From positions 302,363 to 366,362 of the forward strand of contig OY970354.1 of the NCBI GenBank assembly GCA_963718515.1: 64,000 nucleotides of DNA, given 5' to 3'. Numbering within the stretch: position 1 is the stretch's first letter; the number at the start of each line of letters is the position of its first letter. The notes beneath the pieces were generated by a model, which worked only from the letters and a program-made list of their open reading frames with translations, searched no databases and was not told the origin of the DNA. A program made the position numbers and the translations under genes. This document shows positions 1,994 through 55,065 of this stretch, piece by piece. This DNA comes from an uncultured bacterium. Lineage in GTDB: Bacteria > Patescibacteriota > Minisyncoccia > UBA6257 > 2-01-FULL-56-20.

Positions 1994-4900
1994 ATGGAAC
2001 AGGATCAAAAAAGAAAGCAACGACAGAAGATCACGGCGATCGTTACGTTACTGATTTTGGGAGCGCTCTTTATAGTAGGCATCTTCCATGGAACATTTTT
2101 CGGCTTTCCGGTGCGCACGGTGCAGGCGGTGACCTCGACCTCGACCTGGACCGACGCCGCAGGTGACGGTACATGGACCAACCCGGGCAACTGGTCGCCC
2201 AGCGGCGAACCCGGATCTAGTACCATCGCCCTTTTCTCTGCCTCAAGTACGGCGAATTGCAGTCTTAATGAGGACGCAAGTGTTGCTGGGATTACTATCA
2301 CGTCAGGGTATACCGGCACGATCACCCAGCCCAACAGCGATTATATTTACATCGGTACATCGGGCTATTCTCAGGCCGGTGGTACCTTTACGGGTGGTTC
2401 CACCACGAATTCCTTTTTCTGGGATAACGGCACTTTTTCTTTCACTGGCGGGACATTCATAATTCCTGTTGGAACCACCTGGGGCACGCCCGGACTGCGC
2501 GTTGATCAAAGCGCCACTATTTCTTCCCTGCTTAACGACGCAAATGATGGCGGAGGGCAGTTCTATGCGACGACCACCATCACCACCTCCACGACATTCT
2601 ATACTCTCACCATCGGCGGGGGCGGCGGAGACCCGAATCCAAGTCCCTACATGACCGTTGCTACCGGTACGGTGATCACCGTGCAATCATCAACGTTTTT
2701 CGATCCCAACCAGGGTTTTGTTTATCTTGAGGGAGGAGGGCAGATCGATGCCCAGGGGAGTGTTGTACTGTTATTCAGCCAGTCGACCGGCTACGGTTCA
2801 ACAATTATTCCCGCTACCAGTACCTTTAATTTTATTCTCGATGGTACCGGCACGCAGACAATCAGTGATGGAGGGCTAGGTGGATTGAATTACGCCGCCC
2901 CTTTCTTCCTTCCGGGCAATTTTGTGATCTCCAAGTCCTCTGGCACGGTAAATTTATCCGGCGATATTGGTATTACCGGCAATTTTATCAACACGAATGG
3001 CACGACTATAAATCCCGGCACATCAACGGTCCTCGATTGGAATAATGTAGCATCAGGTACTATCACCGGCACCTCCACGTTCAATAATCTCCTTTTTAGT
3101 GCTTATAATTCAAGTACGGTGACCATCTCGACCGGCACGACGCTCACCGTGTTGGGGAATTTGGATCTTGCGGTATACAAATTTTCCATCAATAACATAA
3201 ACATTGTGGGCGGAGGAACGATCGATGATCAGGGGAATATCGAAACCGATCCTGTTTCGTATTACCCCACAAACACCCTTTCTCTCATTATGGATGGCAC
3301 AGGCACCCAAACCATAGGGGATGATTTTGATTGCACTACGATTGCTAGTGTGAATTGCTATTGGGGAGTGCCCCTCCCGGATCTTACGATCAACAAAACA
3401 AACGGCTCAGTCGTGCTTGCGAATAATATCATGATTGAGAGCAATTTCATTAACACAAACGGCACAATGATCAATCCCGGCACATCGACGATCATTTTTG
3501 GTCAGGGCGATGCGCAATTTAGTCAAACGGGAGTATATGGTGTTGCATATGACCAATATTTTCCTTCCGGCACAAGCACGTTCACCCTTACCGGATCTTC
3601 CACTTTCTATAACCTGATCATCGGCGATTGGAATTCTGCAGTAGGCAACGTCTTCGCGACCATCGCGACGGGGACCACTATAACTGTGCAGGGAGATTTT
3701 GAATTGTCTAATTGTGACGACTATACCCAAATTAAAGGCGGCGGCGCAATCGATATGCAAGGAAATATTTTATCAGGTGATTGCCCATGGACCGGGCAGG
3801 GGTCGTTCCTTGGCGTAGGAGCCCCATCGATCATTGTGAATGGTACGGGAACTCAGATCATAGGCCTTGGGAGTTTGAATAGTGGCATAGATCTTTATTT
3901 GCCGAACCTTACCGTACAAAAATCGAGCGGGGTTGCGTACGGCGAAAGCGCCGCGACCATTTATAGTTCATCCACGATCGCGCAAGGGGAGTTTCAGCTT
4001 TCGACCGGAACGTCGGCAACGAGTTTTATTCAGCGATACGGAGCATTCACCATAAATTCCGGCGCGCGACTATCCGATTATCCCGTTGCGACTTCCACGT
4101 TTGAGCCCGGAGCAGGGGTGGTAAATAACGGCACGGTATTTTTCTCGGGGGATGGAGAGGGGTGCGCTCTGCCATTGCCGAATTATATCGTCATAAACAC
4201 CGCGAGCGGCACGACATCGCAGGCGTGGTCGGGGACGGGGAATTTTATCATGCGATACGCGAGCGTAAAGCGCCAGACCACTTCCGGCCCGGCGGCGATC
4301 AACGACGTGAACGGCACGAATGCGGGGAATAATAGCGGCTCGTGGACCTTCACGACTGCCGGGCGTCCCGCCCTTGTGCAAAGTGTCTCCGCATCATCGA
4401 CATCCGCCTCTTCGCTCACGCTTCCCTTTACCTTTTATCCCCGCGCGGGAGATCTCATCCTCGTTGCGGTATCGGCGAACGGCCAATCCATCACTGCTCC
4501 CACGGATAATGCGAGTAACACGTATACTTTGATCACTTCTAACACCCTAAGCGCTTCCCCGAATGGCACGTTAAGTCTTTATTACGCGAAAAGCATCAAT
4601 ACCACATCTTCTTTCATGGTCACCGCGAACGGGACCGGCGGCGGTCCGCTTTCTGCGGCGGCATTCGAGTATACGAGCATCAATCCCTCTTCAACGTTCC
4701 AAACCTATATTGCGAATTCAGACAATAGCGGCACGGCGACGAATCTCACCTCCCTGTCCGCGACAGGGAATTCGAGCAATGAACTTTATTTTGGAGCCAT
4801 GACCCTGGCGACTTCAACAATAGCAAGCGCCGGTTCTACCTGGACATCGGCCCTTGCTATGACGAATAACACGGGCTACCAAGATCTCTATGCGGAATAT

Positions 4901-31396: not shown

Positions 31397-31468
31397 CGGA
31401 TCCGCCAGGAGTCGAACCCGGTTCGCCACGTGTTAAAGGTAGCATTTTAACCCCATAACTACGGGCCC
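31397..31468 (-). tRNA. atypical tRNA-like gene (anticodon loop ambiguous: UAA in a 7-nt loop with a C31-C39 mismatch, or a 9-nt loop CUUUAACAC); possibly a pseudo-tRNA
   Basis: The minus strand reads GGGCCCGTAGTTATGGGGTTAAAATGCTACCTTTAACACGTGGCGAACCGGGTTCGACTCCTGGCGGATCCG. The T arm is canonical (CCGGG-TTCGACT-CCTGG). The acceptor stem has a C4-A69 mismatch and a G3-U70 pair. Position 14 is T and position 37 is C. The variable loop is short, and CCA is not encoded. Confidence 0.5.
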
Positions 31469-48344: not shown

Positions 48345-48610
48345 TGCTCATCTGGCGGACGTAGCACGAACGTATTTTATGGCAAATTCCTGATCATTTT
48401 ACCCCTTCAAATACCCCTTCAATTGCCCTGAGTCAATTTGAAGGGGTAGCAAGTCCAGATCGGCCTGAAAACACTGGCCTTTCTGACCCTCACCTCCCAA
48501 AATTCAAAGTCCTACTTCACTCCGCTAGACCCCTTCCGAAATGGTGTGCTCAGCCCCTCGGTCTGCTGACCTCGGGGCTTCGCGTATGGCGCGCCCAAAT
48601 TCCTCCCCCA
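48345..48610 (+). repeat. IR1-L: 266-bp inverted repeat, apparently identical to the reverse complement of 51776-52041
   Basis: Compared block by block and no mismatch was seen. The outer end is tgctcatctggcgg and the inner end is ...aattcctccccca. Confidence 0.9.
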
Positions 48611-48824
48611 ACCCCTCCTTTGGGGCGCGCAGAGGTGGTAGTTCCACGTTTCGCGACCCTATTCCTGTCTGGTGGGAAAATCCTACGTCTTGTGTGTCTG
48701 ACCCTCCAGAAAGCGGTTTCTTGCCCTTGCCCCAGCCCTCCCATTGCGCGGGCAAGAGGCGATCTAGCTCCCTCAAAATTCGGTTTACCAAAAGGGTCTT
48801 TTTCTGATAACATAAAAGGTAATC

Positions 48825-50576
48825 ATGGCCATAACTCCATCACGGCAAACCGTCGAACAACTTCTAAATATTGGCAACGCCCGCTTTTTGGTTCCATCCT
48901 ACCAGCGCGGTTTTGATTGGGGTAAAGACGAAGCAGATGACTTATGGAATGACGTTATCTCATCCGATCAGGGAATATACTTAGGCAATATTGTCCTCGA
49001 TGTCGAAAATATGAATCGCGGCGAGATATCTATCGTCGATGGCCAACAGAGGATAACAACTATTTGTTTATTACTTATTGCGTGTCGTGCGAGGGCAATC
49101 GCCATAAAAGAAAACAAGCTCGCTAGTAAGATTACGGAAAAGTTAACTTTTAGCGATTCTACTACTGGTGAAATGACGGGAGCAAGGTTGGGCGCATCAA
49201 TGGCAGTGCGTGATATTTTTGAGTACATCATCAGGGACGATTGGAAAGGAGACTTTCCTACGAAGTTGGGAAAGAAATTCGTTAAGCGGCAGATTAATAA
49301 GATCAAACCCGTATATGAATTATTCCGTGAGCGGGTATCGTCGCTTAAGAAGCTTGAAGATATATCAACTTTGTTGAAAAAGCTTTACGGATCGTTTGTT
49401 ATTAAGATAGATGTCGATGGCGATCTTGATGTATTCGATCTTTTTGAAAGAGCGAATGCGCGTGGCCTGGAACTTAATGCAGCCGATCTTTTAAAGGCAG
49501 ATCTCTTCTCCGCCGAAATTGAGGGTATCGAGGAAACGTGGGATGAAATAGTGGAAAACGCAGATACCACAATGATGAGAATGTTGAAATATTACCTGGT
49601 CGCCAGGAAGGGAGCCGTCCAAAAGAAAGATATTTTCAAAAATCTCCAAAGGCAATCTTCGGAACTCAAGCCAGATGTTTTTGTAAAAGACCTCAGTGAT
49701 TTTTCTGCCTTTTATGCCATCTTGCGGGAGGGACGAGAAGAAGATCTAAGAAGTTATTTCGAAGCGAATGGGTGTTTGGGAATCTCTAGAAATCAACATT
49801 ATTGCCACGATATTTATTCAAGTATCGAAGCCTTAAGGCTTTTCCGTGTTACGCAACCTTACCCGATTATTTATTCGGCCGTAAAAGCATATCAGGAAAA
49901 ATATGGGGATAACGCTGAAATGGCGAAGTTGCTTAGGTCTCTTATAGAAACCTTCGAGAAATACCATTTCGTTAACAATGTCATTTGTGAGCGTGTGGGT
50001 AACGAAATCGAGAAAACATATATGGACTTCGCTCCGAAATTTAACAATGCAAAGGATTTTAAAAAGAATTGCAGCGAACTTATTAAGATCCTTCAAGACA
50101 AGAAGGCTAGTTATGAAGAGTTTGAGCCTAATTTCAAAGAACTTTCATATAGCACCTCTGCCGACCTACCACTTATCAGTTACGTTATTGACCGCATAAA
50201 TAACTTTGATAGAGTAGGTGGACAAAAAACACAGCTATTTTTCTTGGACAGAAAAGGATTTAGGCGAAGTTTTAATGTTGAGCATTTTTATCCAGACTCT
50301 AAACGGGGAGAATTGCCTGATCCTGATATAGCTGATAATATCGGAAACTTGCTAATTATTAGCTTACATACAAACTCGAAGCTGCAAGCTAAAATGCCGC
50401 TTGAAAAAATAGAGATACTAAAGAATAAAGAAAGTTTTGCTAACTTACCGCATGTTAAAACTTTTATCGAGGAATTTGAGAATCACATTAAGACTAAGGG
50501 TTGGGGATCGGACGAGATAGCCATGAGAGCTGTCAAATTAGCTCACGGCGCTTACTACAAAGTTTGGCATTTTTAG
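48825..50576 (+). CDS. DUF262 + DUF1524 (GmrSD-like) nuclease-family protein
   Basis: N-terminus has FLVPSYQRGFDWGKDEADDLWNDV and IVDGQQRITT (DUF262/ParB-like DGQQR motif). C-terminus has FNVEHFYP...IGNLLIISLHTNSKL (His-Me/DUF1524-like). Confidence 0.75.
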   Translation: MAITPSRQTVEQLLNIGNARFLVPSYQRGFDWGKDEADDLWNDVISSDQGIYLGNIVLDVENMNRGEISIVDGQQRITTICLLLIACRARAIAIKENKLASKITEKLTFSDSTTGEMTGARLGASMAVRDIFEYIIRDDWKGDFPTKLGKKFVKRQINKIKPVYELFRERVSSLKKLEDISTLLKKLYGSFVIKIDVDGDLDVFDLFERANARGLELNAADLLKADLFSAEIEGIEETWDEIVENADTTMMRMLKYYLVARKGAVQKKDIFKNLQRQSSELKPDVFVKDLSDFSAFYAILREGREEDLRSYFEANGCLGISRNQHYCHDIYSSIEALRLFRVTQPYPIIYSAVKAYQEKYGDNAEMAKLLRSLIETFEKYHFVNNVICERVGNEIEKTYMDFAPKFNNAKDFKKNCSELIKILQDKKASYEEFEPNFKELSYSTSADLPLISYVIDRINNFDRVGGQKTQLFFLDRKGFRRSFNVEHFYPDSKRGELPDPDIADNIGNLLIISLHTNSKLQAKMPLEKIEILKNKESFANLPHVKTFIEEFENHIKTKGWGSDEIAMRAVKLAHGAYYKVWHF

Positions 50577-50650
50577 ATAATATCCGCAGATGAAGTATTC
50601 CGCTTATGTTAGGAAAGGTCGGAGAATAAAAAATAGTAGCAAATTATATT

Positions 50651-50875
50651 ATGAGTATTGACCCAAGAGAACGCGAACGCTTAATGCGCGATCTCAAAAA
50701 TTTACAAGCAACACGAGACCAATTTGTTCGCTCAAGGGATAGGGAAAGAGACCTAGCAAAACATTATGGTAGCGATCACCCTACGGCAAAGATTGCCGAG
50801 AGGCAGGTGAAGGATTATGAGGAAAAAATCTCAAGGTTGGACAGAGAAATTTCTGCCATCACATCCCGTCTATAA
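50651..50875 (+). CDS. hypothetical 74-aa charged coiled-coil protein
   Basis: R/E/D-rich heptad-like sequence. No known motif. Confidence 0.5.
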   Translation: MSIDPRERERLMRDLKNLQATRDQFVRSRDRERDLAKHYGSDHPTAKIAERQVKDYEEKISRLDREISAITSRL

Positions 50876-50883
50876 TTCTTTTT

Positions 50884-51732
50884 ATGGCCGGATCAAATGA
50901 CAAAAAGAGCAACCTCGGACTATTCGCCGCCGTCTTTGCGGCGATTTTCGGCACAAGTTATGGGATTTTTTCGATTGGTAAGAACTTGAAAAATCGTGGC
51001 GCGGCGATGGAACAAGCCATCGGCGAGGCAGAGAAACTCTTTCAAAAGGGAATGACCGAAGATGAGATATTTAATGCCTTCTGCGCCGATGCCGCGCGGC
51101 AGACTAAGAGAAGCGTGAATGATGGCGAGATAAGAGACAAGGTGAGAAGTGTAGTGTCGGAAGCGAAGAAGCGATTTGAAGCGGGTGGCGCGGTAGTTTC
51201 TATAAGCGGCTCATTATCCTCGCCGAGCGACCTTGACGGCTCTATCAAAACTATAATGCTTGCCCTTCAGAACGCCCTTCAAAAATCGCAACCGACTTTG
51301 AAATTTGATGATCTTTATGCGAAGGCAAAAGAAGCCGAAGCGAAGAACGACATGAGTGATTTTCAGGTATTCATTCAGAATCAGGAATATGATACGACGG
51401 CCGTTTGGAAGATATGGATGGACGTTGAGCAGAAGCTCAATCAGACGACGTATTTTTTCGATAGTTCAGAGCCAGAGAACGTGCGAAGCAAGCGAGAGGA
51501 GATGGCGAAGCTCAACAGCTTGCCGAATACCTTTAAGAATCTCCTTGTAACGCGCGGCCACGTCCTGCGCCATGTACGAACGATGTATAACGGGAAGAAC
51601 AAGCGCGAGGAAACAAAGAAACATGAGGCCGATGAACTCAAGGTGCTTATGAAGCTGTTTCAGAACGACATTGACCGCGTAACGGCGGAGATGGATGTCT
51701 TTAACAAGACGATGGAGAAGCTTCAAACTTAA
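50884..51732 (+). CDS. hypothetical 282-aa protein with an N-terminal TM helix and helical/coiled-coil body
   Basis: LGLFAAVFAAIFGTSYGIFSIG is a TM segment. The remainder is charged and helical. No known motif. Confidence 0.55.
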   Translation: MAGSNDKKSNLGLFAAVFAAIFGTSYGIFSIGKNLKNRGAAMEQAIGEAEKLFQKGMTEDEIFNAFCADAARQTKRSVNDGEIRDKVRSVVSEAKKRFEAGGAVVSISGSLSSPSDLDGSIKTIMLALQNALQKSQPTLKFDDLYAKAKEAEAKNDMSDFQVFIQNQEYDTTAVWKIWMDVEQKLNQTTYFFDSSEPENVRSKREEMAKLNSLPNTFKNLLVTRGHVLRHVRTMYNGKNKREETKKHEADELKVLMKLFQNDIDRVTAEMDVFNKTMEKLQT

Positions 51733-51775
51733 TCAGAGAAAAAATTTCACGGCCATGCGGCCATGAGCTATTTTG

Positions 51776-52041
51776 TGGGGGAGGAATTTGGGCGCGCCAT
51801 ACGCGAAGCCCCGAGGTCAGCAGACCGAGGGGCTGAGCACACCATTTCGGAAGGGGTCTAGCGGAGTGAAGTAGGACTTTGAATTTTGGGAGGTGAGGGT
51901 CAGAAAGGCCAGTGTTTTCAGGCCGATCTGGACTTGCTACCCCTTCAAATTGACTCAGGGCAATTGAAGGGGTATTTGAAGGGGTAAAATGATCAGGAAT
52001 TTGCCATAAAATACGTTCGTGCTACGTCCGCCAGATGAGCA
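51776..52041 (-). repeat. IR1-R: inverted copy of 48345-48610
   Basis: See IR1-L. Confidence 0.9.
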
Positions 52042-52139
52042 GCTATAAAACTTAGGTTGGTTTCAGAAAAATTCACGCGCGCTTCGCGGAGCGAAGCGTA
52101 AGGTGGGGTGGGGGTAAATTCGATACGACGGTTGTTAAG
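52037..52139 (+). repeat. IR2-L: 103-bp inverted copy of the tRNA-Asn 3' end plus downstream flank (54841-54943), 4 mismatches
   Basis: The reverse complement aligns with 54841-54943. Mismatches are at 54846, 54858, 54879 and 54882. It overlaps IR1-R by the 5 nt GAGCA. Confidence 0.85.
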
Positions 52140-52175
52140 AAAGAGATTCGAGCCGAAGATTTTTTGGAGGGAGGT

Positions 52176-52760
52176 CTAACCAACTTGCCTAATCCAATCC
52201 CGAATGTACATGCCGACTCTCTCGATATCCGTTGGAGCAAGTTCGCCGCCGTGCATGATGATGTTGCGCGACTTCTCAAGCGTTGTGATAATTTGTTTAG
52301 CCCACTCAATATTGTCGATGTGTATCTGAAAGAATTTCCAATTTTGCTCACTGCCCATAATTGAGATGAGATCACCAAAATCAGTGTAGTAGATTGGAGA
52401 TGCGCCACGTGGGGTAAGCCATCTGACTCCACTTTCTTCCTTTTTTCTATTTTCTGCCTTTTGTCGGATCTTAGAATTTACAGATTTTGTCCACCAGTCC
52501 GCTTTCTTTTCCTCTAGAAGTTTTTTCTCAATAAATTCCCGCACGGTATTTTCAAACGCACAAATTGCGGTATAGACAACCGCCATTCTGCGTGATTTCG
52601 CTACTAAATCTTCATCTAGCAAAGGGATACCAAGTCGTTTTGCCGCCTCTGCTTCCCACTTTTCGGTAAAGTTTCTCTTGCCGAGATGCCCTGCTTTTTC
52701 TAGGGCAATTTCGGTCAATAAACCACGGAGACCGAACGAATAGAGTAGGTCATCTTTCAT
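52176..52760 (-). CDS. HEPN-domain protein (Swt1-like HEPN, tentative)
   Basis: The C-terminal RNIIMHGG fits the HEPN R-x4-6-H motif. An upstream FENTVREF segment is also present. 194 aa. Confidence 0.6.
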   Translation of the reverse strand: MKDDLLYSFGLRGLLTEIALEKAGHLGKRNFTEKWEAEAAKRLGIPLLDEDLVAKSRRMAVVYTAICAFENTVREFIEKKLLEEKKADWWTKSVNSKIRQKAENRKKEESGVRWLTPRGASPIYYTDFGDLISIMGSEQNWKFFQIHIDNIEWAKQIITTLEKSRNIIMHGGELAPTDIERVGMYIRDWIRQVG

Positions 52761-52763
52761 TGT

Positions 52764-53405
52764 TTACAATAAATGTCGGCGCAAGCTCTTGAAAATAGCG
52801 TCATAAACCGACTCGTCGCGCGACTCAGGAAGGTGGATTTGAATATTGTAATGGAACTGGGCACTCGATGGTTTTTTGGATTCTAATTCCGCCTCTTCCT
52901 CTTTTTCTTTCAATGACTGAGGTGGTTCTGGCTCATTCTTTTTTTGCTCAACTTTTGGTTTCGTTATTGGTGTTTTCTTTGCAGTCCAATCGGCATATTC
53001 AACAAGTGCTTTGAAAGTGCTTGCCATCTTTGTAAGTACTGACTCTGAATACTTACCCTGCGTTAGGACGCGCAATTTATTTTTGACCTCTGTTGCGGAG
53101 AGTTCGTTTGCCTTTGTGTTTACGGAAAATAAATCGCCGTATGCTTCTTCTACTGCTTCGGCAAGGACTTTCTTCGATTCTGACTGATCGAGGAAACGAA
53201 AATACCTCTCTGTGGGAACTGCGTTAGCGTCCAAGAAACCGAGCCCCTTGAGCACTGGAATATACAAACGATCATTTGTACTCTTAAATCCGAGTCCTTC
53301 TATAAACCTTTGAGTAAAGGCGTTGGGGGCTTTTGCGGTAATAAGGCTGTCGAAGAATGATTTTACATTCTTGACGCTCACGAGATATGAAGGGATTAGA
53401 GCCAT
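52764..53405 (-). CDS. partner protein of the HEPN gene (DUF5343-like, tentative)
   Basis: 213 aa, with its stop 3 nt before the HEPN start. N-terminal ...FTQRFIEGLGFKSTNDRLYIPVLKGLGFLD..AVPTERY and C-terminal ...IQIHLPESRDESVYDAIFKSLRRHL resemble DUF5343, recalled from memory. Confidence 0.45.
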   Translation of the reverse strand: MALIPSYLVSVKNVKSFFDSLITAKAPNAFTQRFIEGLGFKSTNDRLYIPVLKGLGFLDANAVPTERYFRFLDQSESKKVLAEAVEEAYGDLFSVNTKANELSATEVKNKLRVLTQGKYSESVLTKMASTFKALVEYADWTAKKTPITKPKVEQKKNEPEPPQSLKEKEEEAELESKKPSSAQFHYNIQIHLPESRDESVYDAIFKSLRRHLL

Positions 53406-53472
53406 GTTAGGTAAAAGCTATCTTTAGTTCCATTATACCCCTAAGGATGCGGCAAAACAAGTCAAACTGCGG

Positions 53473-53478
53473 TAAAAT
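53473..53478 (+). promoter_or_regulatory. -10 box (TAAAAT) 6 nt upstream of the recombinase ATG
   Basis: The sequence is gcggTAAAATacaactATG. Confidence 0.35.
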
Positions 53479-53484
53479 ACAACT

Positions 53485-55065
53485 ATGCGCTACTTCCTCT
53501 ATGCCCGCAAAAGCACCGACGTTGAAGACAAGCAAGTTTTGAGCATCGAAGCCCAACTTGTAGAACTCCGCGAACTCGCCAGAGACGAGCATATTGAGAT
53601 AGCCGAAGAACTCGTCGAGAAAAAATCCGCCAAGATGCCTGGCCGCCCCGTCTTCAACGAAATGCTACGTCGAATAGCTAAAGGCGAGGCTAAAGGCATC
53701 ATCTGTTGGAAACTAGATCGTCTAGCCCGCAATCCCGTGGACGGCGGCCAGGTCAGCTGGATGCTCCAGCAGGGAATGATTGAGCATATCCTCATGCCAG
53801 ATAAGAGCTACCGCCCGACCGATAACGTTCTTATGATGTCCGTCGAATTCGGCATGGCCAACCAGTTTATTCGCGATCTCAGTTCTAATACGAGTAGAGG
53901 ACTGCGACAAAAAGCGCGACACGGGGATTTTCCTGGCACTGCTCCCGTCGGGTATCTGAATGATGTCCGAGCTAAAACGATTGTCGTTGATCGCCGCAAG
54001 TCTAAAGCTATTAAAGCCGCCTTTGAATTGTATGCGCTAGGCAAATCCCGTCTTGAAGACATATCAAAATTTCTTTTCGAGCAGGGCGTCAAAAGCACGA
54101 ACGGCAACCCGCTCCATAAGGACAGGGTTCGCTTCATTCTAGCCAATCCGTTTTATTACGGCGTATTCATGTATAAGGGCGAAACCTACAAAGGCCGCCA
54201 TACTCCGCTTATCGAGAAGCGTCTTTGGGACAAGGTTCAGCAGGTGCTCGTTGATCGCGGCCATCCGCAGAAAACGACGAGTGATCCGAAACCGTTTTGC
54301 GGTTTGCTTCATTGCGGCGAGTGCGGCCGCATGATCACCGCCGAGGTTCAGAAAGGACACACCTATTATCGTTGTACCAAGAAAGGAACGGCTTGTTCCC
54401 AGCCATACGTCCGCGAGGAGGTTTTGACTGCCGATCTATCCAATATACTTTCAGAGTTCGCCATGCCCGAAGCTATCGCATCAGAGCTTACGAAAAAGAA
54501 CGAAGAAGACGAGGCTGTATCCACTCAAAAAGCGTCGGCGTTCGCTCAAGAGTTGCGTACAAAGGTTCAGGACTTTTCCCGCAACCTCGACCGACTTACC
54601 GATCTCTATGTAGCTCAGGATATTGACCGAGAGGACTACCTTTCCCGCCGTCGCAAGCTCCTTTCGGAAAAGCGGTCAGTCGAGGAGCAGATAGCCCGTC
54701 TTGAGCGAAACGCCTCCGTATGGCTCGAACCAATGCGAGAATGGATAAAAGACGCGTCATTGCTTACCTTAGTGGCAACCAATGACGACTTAAATGCCAA
54801 AAAGGCCTCCCTACAAAAAATCTTCGGCTCGAACATACTTCTTAAAAACCGTCGTATTGAATTTACCCCCACCCCACCATATGCTTCGCTCCGCGAAGCG
54901 CGCGTGAATTTTTCTGAAACCAACCTAAGTTTTATAGCTGCTCCGCGACCAGGACTCGAACCTGGAACCATCGCCTTAACAGGGCGCCGCTCTACCATTG
55001 AGCTATCGCGGAATACGAATAGTATTCTAACAGACGGGGAAATATTTTCAATAGCCGCTTTTTAA
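53485..55065 (+). CDS. large serine recombinase (resolvase/invertase N-domain + recombinase domain + zinc ribbon + coiled coil); the ORF runs through IR2-R and antisense across tRNA-Asn
   Basis: YARKSTDVEDKQVLSIEAQ (catalytic Ser context), ICWKLDRLARN, CGLLHCGECGRMITAEVQKGHTYYRCTKK (zinc ribbon). The last ~70 codons are encoded by IR2-R and the antisense tRNA, so the true C-terminus is uncertain. Confidence 0.8.
   Translation: MRYFLYARKSTDVEDKQVLSIEAQLVELRELARDEHIEIAEELVEKKSAKMPGRPVFNEMLRRIAKGEAKGIICWKLDRLARNPVDGGQVSWMLQQGMIEHILMPDKSYRPTDNVLMMSVEFGMANQFIRDLSSNTSRGLRQKARHGDFPGTAPVGYLNDVRAKTIVVDRRKSKAIKAAFELYALGKSRLEDISKFLFEQGVKSTNGNPLHKDRVRFILANPFYYGVFMYKGETYKGRHTPLIEKRLWDKVQQVLVDRGHPQKTTSDPKPFCGLLHCGECGRMITAEVQKGHTYYRCTKKGTACSQPYVREEVLTADLSNILSEFAMPEAIASELTKKNEEDEAVSTQKASAFAQELRTKVQDFSRNLDRLTDLYVAQDIDREDYLSRRRKLLSEKRSVEEQIARLERNASVWLEPMREWIKDASLLTLVATNDDLNAKKASLQKIFGSNILLKNRRIEFTPTPPYASLREARVNFSETNLSFIAAPRPGLEPGTIALTGRRSTIELSRNTNSILTDGEIFSIAAF
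54841..54943 (-). repeat. IR2-R: tRNA-Asn 3' end (3 nt) plus 100-bp downstream flank, repeated in inverted orientation at 52037-52139
   Basis: See IR2-L. It contains the hairpin gcttcgc-tcc-gcgaagc. Confidence 0.85.
54941..55012 (-). tRNA. tRNA-Asn (GUU)
   Basis: The minus strand reads TCCGCGATAGCTCAATGGTAGAGCGGCGCCCTGTTAAGGCGATGGTTCCAGGTTCGAGTCCTGGTCGCGGAG. The acceptor stem is perfect, the anticodon loop is CTGTTAA, the discriminator is G73, and CCA is not encoded. Confidence 0.9.

Follow-up and report, generated by a model that had tools for sequence, protein, structure and literature searches.

The 64,000-nucleotide (nt) stretch analysed here (contig OY970354.1 of an uncultured Patescibacteriota bacterium; hereafter the window) carries, next to a tRNA-Asn gene, an island with a large serine recombinase (LSR) gene, two long inverted repeats and several defence-related genes. 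Across 48-55 kb the G+C content is 0.39-0.50, as opposed to 0.55-0.57 in the flanks. The segment from 48345 to 54943 is probably the integrated form of an LSR defence island belonging to a family that is widespread in Patescibacteria and targets the 3' ends of tRNA genes. The gene content given by an earlier reading made from the letters only (the sequence-only reading) was confirmed; it consists of a GmrSD-type gene, two further open reading frames (ORFs), a HEPN_Swt1 gene, a DUF5343 gene and the LSR. The LSR has an N-terminal resolvase catalytic domain with a Ser nucleophile (PF00239, E = 2e-19, residues 4-147; motif YARKST at residues 6-11), and both the Recombinase domain (PF07508, E = 2e-14) and the zinc ribbon (PF13408, Zn_ribbon_recom, E = 1e-9) were matched. 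It is homologous to SprA/YokA of SPbeta (structure 9dxh, E = 1.5e-9). By its domains the island enzyme is a bona fide LSR. Of the ORF as it stands, residues 1-486 are native, and residues 487-526 are an antisense reading of tRNA-Asn and its flank. The features that define the layout are the following.

48345-48610 and 51776-52041, inverted repeat I1: 266 nt, 100% complementary, 3165 nt between the arms, found by repeat search
52037-52177 and 54803-54943, inverted repeat I2: 141 nt, 93% complementary, found by repeat search
48345-48610, plus strand, left arm of I1 ('Pr' arm): LSR tail codons and downstream region, with a hairpin inside it at 48412-48448
48345-48349, plus strand, core TGCTC of junction J1: boundary of the chromosome and the left end of the element, read from the sequence
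48346-48393, plus strand, detached C-terminal mini-exon of the LSR: A HLADVARTYFMANS stop
51776-52041, minus strand, right arm of I1: second, inverted copy of the tail and downstream region, with the tail codons at 52040-51993 of the minus strand
52037-52041, inverted, core TGCTC of junction J2: shared by the right arm of I1 and the left arm of I2
52037-52177, minus strand, left arm of I2 ('Pl' copy): inverted spare of LSR codons ~441-486
53485-55065, plus strand, LSR ORF as it stands: 526 amino acids (aa)
54803-54943, plus strand, right arm of I2: LSR codons 440-486 up to the core
54939-54943, plus strand, core TGCTC of junction J3: boundary of the LSR body and tRNA-Asn, read from the sequence
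54940-55012, minus strand, tRNA-Asn(GTT): integration target, with its 3' end overlapping the core

The perfect 266-bp repeat described before was reproduced exactly by the repeat search. The second repeat, given as 103 bp at about 96% identity, is real and inverted, but its actual extent is 141 nt at 93%, and its right-hand copy, which had been taken for the natural 3' flank of tRNA-Asn, consists of LSR codons. The two repeats are not nested, as had been thought, but adjacent: they abut with an overlap of 5 nt (GAGCA). With these lengths and identities, they cannot have originated by chance. The two arms of I2 differ by 10 substitutions, 6 synonymous and 4 non-synonymous, none of which creates a stop codon. 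Variants specific to the right arm lie within 54835-54882 (e.g., CATACTTCTTAAAAAC...CCATATGCT).

The core TGCTC is common to all three junctions, in direct orientation at J1 and J3 and inverted at J2. On the plus strand J1 reads CTTGTCCTCTTT-TGCTC-ATCTGGCGGACG and J3 reads TTTTATAGC-TGCTC-CGCGACCAGG, the last part being the tRNA, while J2 on the minus strand reads TTTTATAGC-TGCTC-ATCTGGCGGACG. The sequence carried by J1 is the one that follows the core in un-split relatives. J1 and J3 are hybrid junctions in direct orientation, resembling attL and attR, and J2 is the un-recombined junction in inverted orientation. A vacant target site would read CTTGTCCTCTTT-TGCTC-CGCGACCAGG. In the un-split configuration the LSR frame gains 14 codons beyond the core, HLADVARTYFMANS followed by a stop. 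The same end is present at J2, where the minus-strand reading of the left arm of I2 continues without a change of frame in the right arm of I1 (...SFIAA, then HLADVARTYFMANS and the stop); tblastn matches this spare end to LSR residues 442-486 with 93% identity. J2 is a complete spare 3' end of the gene (codons ~441-500, stop and downstream region) and also looks like an attP. The native LSR thus comprises ~500 codons, of which integration removes the last ~15.

The repeats had been regarded as generic cassette boundaries. Instead, they are in all likelihood the two halves of one duplicated sequence of ~400 nt, composed of the LSR 3' end and the hairpin region downstream of it and cut at the crossover, I2 being the half upstream of the core and I1 the half downstream. 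The crossover site (attP, core TGCTC) very probably sits inside the LSR ORF, ~15 codons before the native stop, so that insertion at tRNA-Asn has divided the gene, with residues 1-486 now found at J3 and the last 14 codons, the stop and a downstream region of ~220 nt at J1. One copy of the LSR 3' end was, with high probability, split in this way, while the other copy is intact and inverted at J2. Since the repeats are the halves of a duplicated gene end, the island is automatically divided into two cassettes, which are whatever stood between the gene-end copies in the circular element. The high confidence expressed here applies to this structural reading as a whole; the switch mechanism discussed further on is held with clearly less.

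When genome and metagenome collections were scanned with the LSR, 160 loci were obtained (161 with the window), of which 145 are distinct; individual loci are cited below by L numbers. Nearly all homologous loci come from metagenome-assembled genomes (MAGs) of Patescibacteria. A phage origin was ruled out, as no relatives were found in the viral collection. An inverted copy of the LSR 3' end is present upstream of the gene in 93 of the 145 distinct loci (median length 158 nt, identity 74-100%, arms a median of 2.7 kb apart), and this architecture is kept across LSRs that are only 45-77% identical. The end of the LSR abuts the 3' end of an opposite-strand tRNA gene, for Gln, Asn, Gly, Thr, Arg, Leu, Glu, Tyr, Trp, Ile, His, Lys, Cys or Val, plus one tmRNA. 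Fifty-nine loci were typed as having a tail-type flank and a tRNA flank, and in ~8 more the adjoining tRNA bears a group I intron or is truncated. Next to the inverted LSR arm there is tail-type sequence in 72 of the 93 repeat-bearing distinct loci, and arbitrary chromosome practically never occurs in this position. Among the 53 loci with at least 1.5 kb of sequence to the left, the second repeat directly abuts the first in 14, usually at ~100% identity. Forty-six contigs end about one k-mer length (50, 100, 118 or 138 nt) past the first repeat, which suggests that the tail region is repeated there too, because a de Bruijn assembler stops where the next sequence is also repeated.

Such contig ends also bear on the possibility, raised with the first description of the layout, that the island is an assembly chimera formed at the repeats. 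Contigs assembled from the short reads of ERR11630394 end exactly at the two repeats; such reads by themselves cannot put the pieces in order, and these other assemblies of the sample are uninformative on orientation. However, 10 positions distinguish the two arms of I2, which rules out a collapsed duplicate, and many studies have contributed to the 93 distinct loci that show the layout, with long-read complete chromosomes (L014 and L032) among them. It is therefore no artefact but a family trait; an assembly artefact was ruled out on these two grounds, and a chimera is considered extremely improbable.

The flanks of the arms are also informative about another origin, in which each cassette would be a mobile unit of its own, bounded by long terminal inverted repeats and added successively at the tRNA 3' end; cassette A would be non-autonomous and would depend on the cassette B recombinase, acting in trans, for its mobility. 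The family does show tandem accretion at tRNAs: in L069, L006 and L150 a second, distant LSR is located next to the tRNA and the older LSR is displaced, and in L053 seven direct junction repeats lie 0.9-1.7 kb apart. Moreover, homologous copies of cassette A, including the inner arm, are 83% identical and occur in either orientation, although the accompanying LSRs are only ~72% identical. These values, together with the inversion of cassette A in L157 relative to L016 and L109, indicate both cassette exchange and inversion. Yet the arms are no generic transposon ends: the I1 arm opens with LSR tail codons and a stop, I2 plus I1 form one continuous ORF end, the frequency of the tail-type flank is not predicted by independent insertions, and cassette A lacks a recombinase gene. 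Serial insertion is accordingly regarded as unlikely.

That the downstream half of the repeat encodes the end of the LSR is borne out across the family. In 83 of 86 loci the arm is free of stops in the LSR frame, which runs on across the core. When the LSR arm is joined to the flank of the inverted copy, 14-17 further codons follow, and the stop is reached after a median of 45 nt (interquartile range 44-49) in 55 of 58 loci; the standard deviation of the stop position is 6 nt in the LSR frame versus 36 and 22 nt in the other two frames. The detached tail is conserved as (H/T)LYDxARTYFxxN followed by the stop, in frame with the LSR. Its Leu residue, present in 46 of 48 loci, is encoded by six different codons, Thr by four, and Tyr and Phe by two each. 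This pattern shows protein-level selection on the detached tail. As its amino acids and stop position are kept though it is detached in the common state, the tail must be translated in some state. The upstream half shows a related bias: in 35 ungapped arm pairs, 51 synonymous and 39 non-synonymous differences were counted (ratio of non-synonymous to synonymous differences per site, pN/pS, 0.24), and a stop codon is present in 1 of the 35 spare copies. The arm differences thus appear more synonymous than expected from neutral drift of a spare copy. Among protein databases, more than 6,000 homologues of the LSR were found at E <= 1e-30. At least 5 of the 112 top homologues with the FGSN motif described below (of 120 listed) end in the native tail according to a strict pattern, and ~15 of the top homologues listed cover 99-100% of the reconstructed 500-aa protein.

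The same data allow the spare end to be weighed as a functionless relic, that is, as the decaying 3' end of a second LSR left by an ancestral inverted duplication (e.g., a head-to-head dimer), with gene conversion keeping the arms alike and inversions being incidental. In several loci the protein-level similarity of the inverted copy does reach residue ~412, past the nucleotide repeat; many spare copies have frame-breaking insertions, the spare end has been lost in L164, and arm variants have been swapped between paralogous copies within one genome. A relic would not be expected to persist as an architecture across LSRs this divergent, nor to retain the amino acids and stop position of the detached tail despite synonymous turnover, and the pN/pS value speaks against it as well. 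In addition, a full second, divergent LSR copy was found in no locus, although recurrent duplication predicts one. A relic is therefore considered rather unlikely. As to how the duplication arose, none of the conservative-recombination routes that were considered yields the layout without an earlier duplication of the gene end; an inverted dimer is a possibility.

Both configurations of the gene exist among the relatives, the split one being common and the un-split or flipped one a minority. L166/P0002 (78% identity) has an un-split, attP-type LSR gene ending in ...ARLYDETRTYFTKNS and a stop, with the inverted arm still present; the LSR of L080 is also un-split, and in L042 the tRNA is joined to the LSR-distal arm, which is the flipped state. 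The closest relative found, L164, has an LSR 93% identical to that of the window, also targets tRNA-Asn and is syntenic with the window in the right flank. Its J1, with core TGCTC, and its J3 are the same as those of the window, and its tail peptide is identical, with 2 synonymous changes. Partial tail-region arms in L164 frame a type III restriction-modification system, not GmrSD. In L084 (92% identity) the spare end is kept and the cargo is different, and a Falkowbacteria MAG contains three copies that have only the LSR and spare-end module in common, the intervening cargo being non-homologous. L033 represents the canonical split element and lacks a spare end. Homologues of the left arm of I1 are present in L014, L132, L017, L084 and L164. 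No vacant tRNA-Asn site was found among the loci retrieved; the left flank of the window island is not syntenic with L023 or L164. Terminal overlaps indicative of circular contigs were not found among the loci. In L164, the T-loop-like sequence GGTTCGAACC at 3768-3777, ~65 nt outside J1, is possibly left over from an earlier attachment site.

The cassettes delimited by the repeats carry the following genes.

48611-51775, plus strand, cassette A: between the arms of I1, no recombinase encoded
48825-50576, cassette A, GmrSD-type gene: PADLOC HEC-06
50651-50875 and 50884-51732, cassette A: ORFs with no assigned function
52176-52760, minus strand, cassette B, HEPN_Swt1 gene: one of the PADLOC PDC-M34B/A pair
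52764-53405, minus strand, cassette B, DUF5343 gene: the other of the PADLOC PDC-M34B/A pair

HEPN_Swt1 and DUF5343 are both divergent from the LSR. According to these PADLOC assignments, each cassette bears a candidate anti-phage defence system, HEC-06 in cassette A and PDC-M34A/B in cassette B. Throughout the family the cargo is variable and defence-related, and in cassette B most of its ORFs point the same way (174 on the minus strand versus 49 on the plus strand). An XRE-type helix-turn-helix gene of 65-80 aa, located 26-116 nt upstream of and divergent from the LSR, is present in 33 loci (e.g., L164 9720-9947 and L166 2700-2906). It is absent from the window, where DUF5343 is in its place, and its product is a candidate regulator or directionality factor.

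The orientation of the cargo is the main evidence relevant to a double phase-variation switch, in which each cassette would turn its defence genes on or off by flipping them relative to an outside promoter. The defence-related nature of the cargo, its co-orientation in cassette B and the inversion of cassette A between relatives fit such a switch. Promoter-like sites, however, are not enriched, and none outside the arms faces inwards; a promoter within the arms would act in both orientations because these are symmetrical. Why the arms are recombinase coding sequence would also be left unexplained. A phase switch of this type is thus very unlikely. Of the invertible switch proposed by the sequence-only reading, a recombinase-linked architecture of the inversion type is supported, and relatives show the LSR cassette in another configuration and cassette A in opposite orientations; a switch acting on the cargo lacks promoter evidence.

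What inversion would do to the recombinase itself can be deduced from the layout. Flipping the LSR cassette would reunite the body of the gene with the native tail and restore the 500-aa enzyme without excision, either through homologous recombination between the 141-bp arms or through the LSR acting on J2 and J3. Excision via J1 and J3 would likewise restore the gene. The long arms would suit homologous recombination and would be homogenised by it, and the LSR could invert the segment between J2 and J3. In the common state the enzyme would be tail-swapped and probably impaired, so that the island would be locked in place, and inversion between the duplicated gene ends would re-arm its mobility, making the arrangement an autonomous on/off switch for island mobility. 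The proposal of a self-splitting serine integrase that uses a spare 3' end as a recombinational mobility switch is put forward tentatively, at a little under even chances. The bias towards the split state fits the model of a poorly active, tail-swapped enzyme and a locked island. The tandem accretion seen in L069, L006 and L150 shows that J3-type junctions serve as targets for incoming elements, and J2 is an intact attP.

Several points weigh against the mobility switch. At least 90% of the loci are in the split state. An inactive tail-swapped enzyme, orientation switching and a circular form are predictions for the window island; the orientation differences among relatives come from metagenome assemblies, and assemblers can mis-orient segments bounded by inverted repeats. 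L164 has no spare end, which is therefore dispensable for maintenance. Of 96 spare arms, 61 bear a conserved insertion of 7-11 nt that breaks the frame at the TCGAAC motif; such a spare arm therefore cannot supply the whole C-terminus, and a productive crossover would have to fall at the core or otherwise clear of the insertion. Dyad symmetry was not detected in the attachment sites, the match being ~0.25 (the random level) at every centre tested in 60 J2 and 60 J3 sites, which is unusual for serine integrases. Finally, no recombination directionality factor was recognised, no dedicated test for one having been made.

The insertion in the 61 spare arms (e.g., L004 1703-1870; ~10 nt) converts GGCTCGAACCTG into GGCTTTGAATTTCTTGAACCTG, and this class of arms usually has the U element described below upstream. 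The insertion-class spare arm seems, from this conservation, to have a role of its own.

Apart from their coding content, the arms and their surroundings contain conserved motifs and structures.

48720-48772, minus strand, U element: GGGAG ... stem - GCGCAnnGGGnGGGnGGGGCAA - stem, just inside the left arm of I1
54823-54834, right arm of I2, FGSN motif TTCGGCTCGAAC: invariant
54883-54899 and 52081-52097, GC-rich hairpin of 7-8 bp with a 3-nt loop: at a fixed place in the coding arm, in all arms

FGSN is encoded by TT[CT]GG[CA]TCGAAC, with Ser as TCG and Asn as AAC in 68 of 68 loci despite the 45-77% identity of the proteins. The T-loop-like TCGAAC(C), 108 nt before the core (133 or 141 nt in some subfamilies), thus appears to be under DNA-level constraint. 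In ~12 loci the repeat arm begins exactly at the FGSN motif. The hairpin in the coding arm is followed by AAAATTTTT; its stem varies between loci by compensatory changes, with the amino acids changing too, and a function as a terminator or in protein binding is possible. The U element lies just inside a repeat arm in many loci (e.g., L004 1871-1965 and L032 9087-9181). The hairpin after its GGGAG is usually covarying, and compensatory changes are seen at 4 of the 5 pairs of the closing stem. No Rfam family matches the repeat arms or the U element.

Other DNA-level signals were considered and rejected. The tail-type arm is not a pure mimic of the tRNA T-arm in the attP register, as its CGAAC corresponds to the Arg-Thr codons of the conserved tail; this CGAAC is 4 nt farther from the core than the CGAAC of the tRNA T-loop in 59 of 65 loci. 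CGA encodes the tail Arg in 44 of 48 loci, and T-arm mimicry is kept only as a possible extra DNA-level constraint on the tail. CTATACGACCAAGCTCGAACCTATTTT is not a DNA half-site but the codons for LYDQARTYF. A palindromic GC central dinucleotide, which would make recombination orientation-free, fits the window and L014; cores of other subfamilies end in AG, TG, AC, etc., and the palindromic dinucleotide is therefore not general.

With serine-integrase elements such as those of SPbeta (SprA), A118 and phiC31 and the SCCmec-type tandem arrays, the island shares the LSR domain architecture and SprA homology, site-specific integration with a short common core and hybrid junctions, tandem accretion at one site and defence-related cargo. 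It differs from them in that the crossover lies inside the LSR ORF, the attachment sites have no dyad symmetry, an inverted spare gene end gives rise to two long inverted repeats, and many different tRNAs are targeted by the family. The layout had been called unusual for a serine-integrase island, and this was upheld. In the literature searched, neither a serine integrase whose own ORF contains attP, nor an inverted spare end, nor the present Patescibacteria family was found to be described.

In archaeal integrases of the SSV type, attP lies inside the int gene, integration into a tRNA gene partitions this gene, and to our knowledge no inverted spare end is present. The attachment site within the integrase ORF, the split gene and the tRNA target are thus common to these integrases and the island (cf. 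review PMC8371274). The SSV-type enzymes differ in being tyrosine recombinases of archaeal viruses and plasmids whose genes are divided into large N- and C-terminal parts, whereas only serine recombinase domains were found in the island. The island also resembles DNA-invertase switches and intragenic invertons in having an inverted-repeat-bounded segment that contains or adjoins a serine recombinase gene. Hin, Gin with the G segment, Cin and Pin are serine DNA-invertase switches with enzymes of ~190 aa that carry a C-terminal helix-turn-helix and act on sites of ~26 bp. The island enzyme, by contrast, is no small helix-turn-helix invertase but has 486-526 aa and LSR domains, its arms consist of 141-266 nt of coding and downstream sequence, and it is the end of the recombinase's own gene that is exchanged. 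As in the Mu S gene, inversion would exchange alternative 3' ends of a gene.

In cluster G mycobacteriophages, immunity is integration-dependent, attP lying inside the repressor gene and the integrase being a tyrosine recombinase. As in the island, integration alters the C-terminus of an element-encoded regulator through an attP in its ORF, but in these phages it is the repressor that is affected, by a tyrosine integrase, and there is no inverted duplicate. Tycheposons (bioRxiv 10.1101/2020.12.28.424599) are, like the island, small cargo islands at tRNA 3' ends in streamlined genomes and can form arrays; they have direct tRNA-end repeats and mostly tyrosine recombinases, and no recombinase-derived inverted repeats. 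Unlike an integron, with IntI, attI and direct cassettes bounded by attC, the island has no tyrosine integrase, and its boundaries are inverted fragments of a recombinase gene.

If the proposed mechanism holds, a serine integrase would alter its own gene through integration and inversion, a new kind of directionality control that works without a separate directionality factor, and a mobility on/off switch would be in use across thousands of defence islands of Patescibacteria. The recombinases form a very large tRNA-targeting family in bacteria whose mobile elements are almost unknown, and the family accounts for the packaging and exchange of defence systems in the tiny genomes of these organisms. 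That many different tRNA 3' ends are recognised, through sites that are apparently one-sided, makes the family interesting in practice for the engineering of integrases.

A number of further observations concern the targets and arrays of the family. The seven direct repeats of L053 (2642-12567) are ~90-nt junction sequences (GGGCGACGTCGTGGAGGACGTTCGAACTGTGTTTGAGGAG...) with one- or two-gene units between them; one junction has received the LSR cassette, and the result is a tandem cassette array. At L068 2621-2982, the target whose 3' end is occupied by a family member is a transfer-messenger RNA (tmRNA) gene in place of a tRNA gene. The LSR-adjoining tRNA-Asn is split by a group I intron in the anticodon loop at L022 11527-11752 and L094 6128-6338, and also in L014, L060 and L118; the introns match Rfam RF00028 with 62-75 bits, and ARAGORN misses such tRNAs. 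In the window itself, Rfam gives a weak tRNA match at 31397-31468 on the minus strand (32.9 bits against a gathering score of 29), which is absent from the ARAGORN results. An LSR fragment at L031 1674-2560, 96% identical to residues 3-275 of the window enzyme, abuts tRNA-Gln and looks like a deletion derivative at another tRNA.

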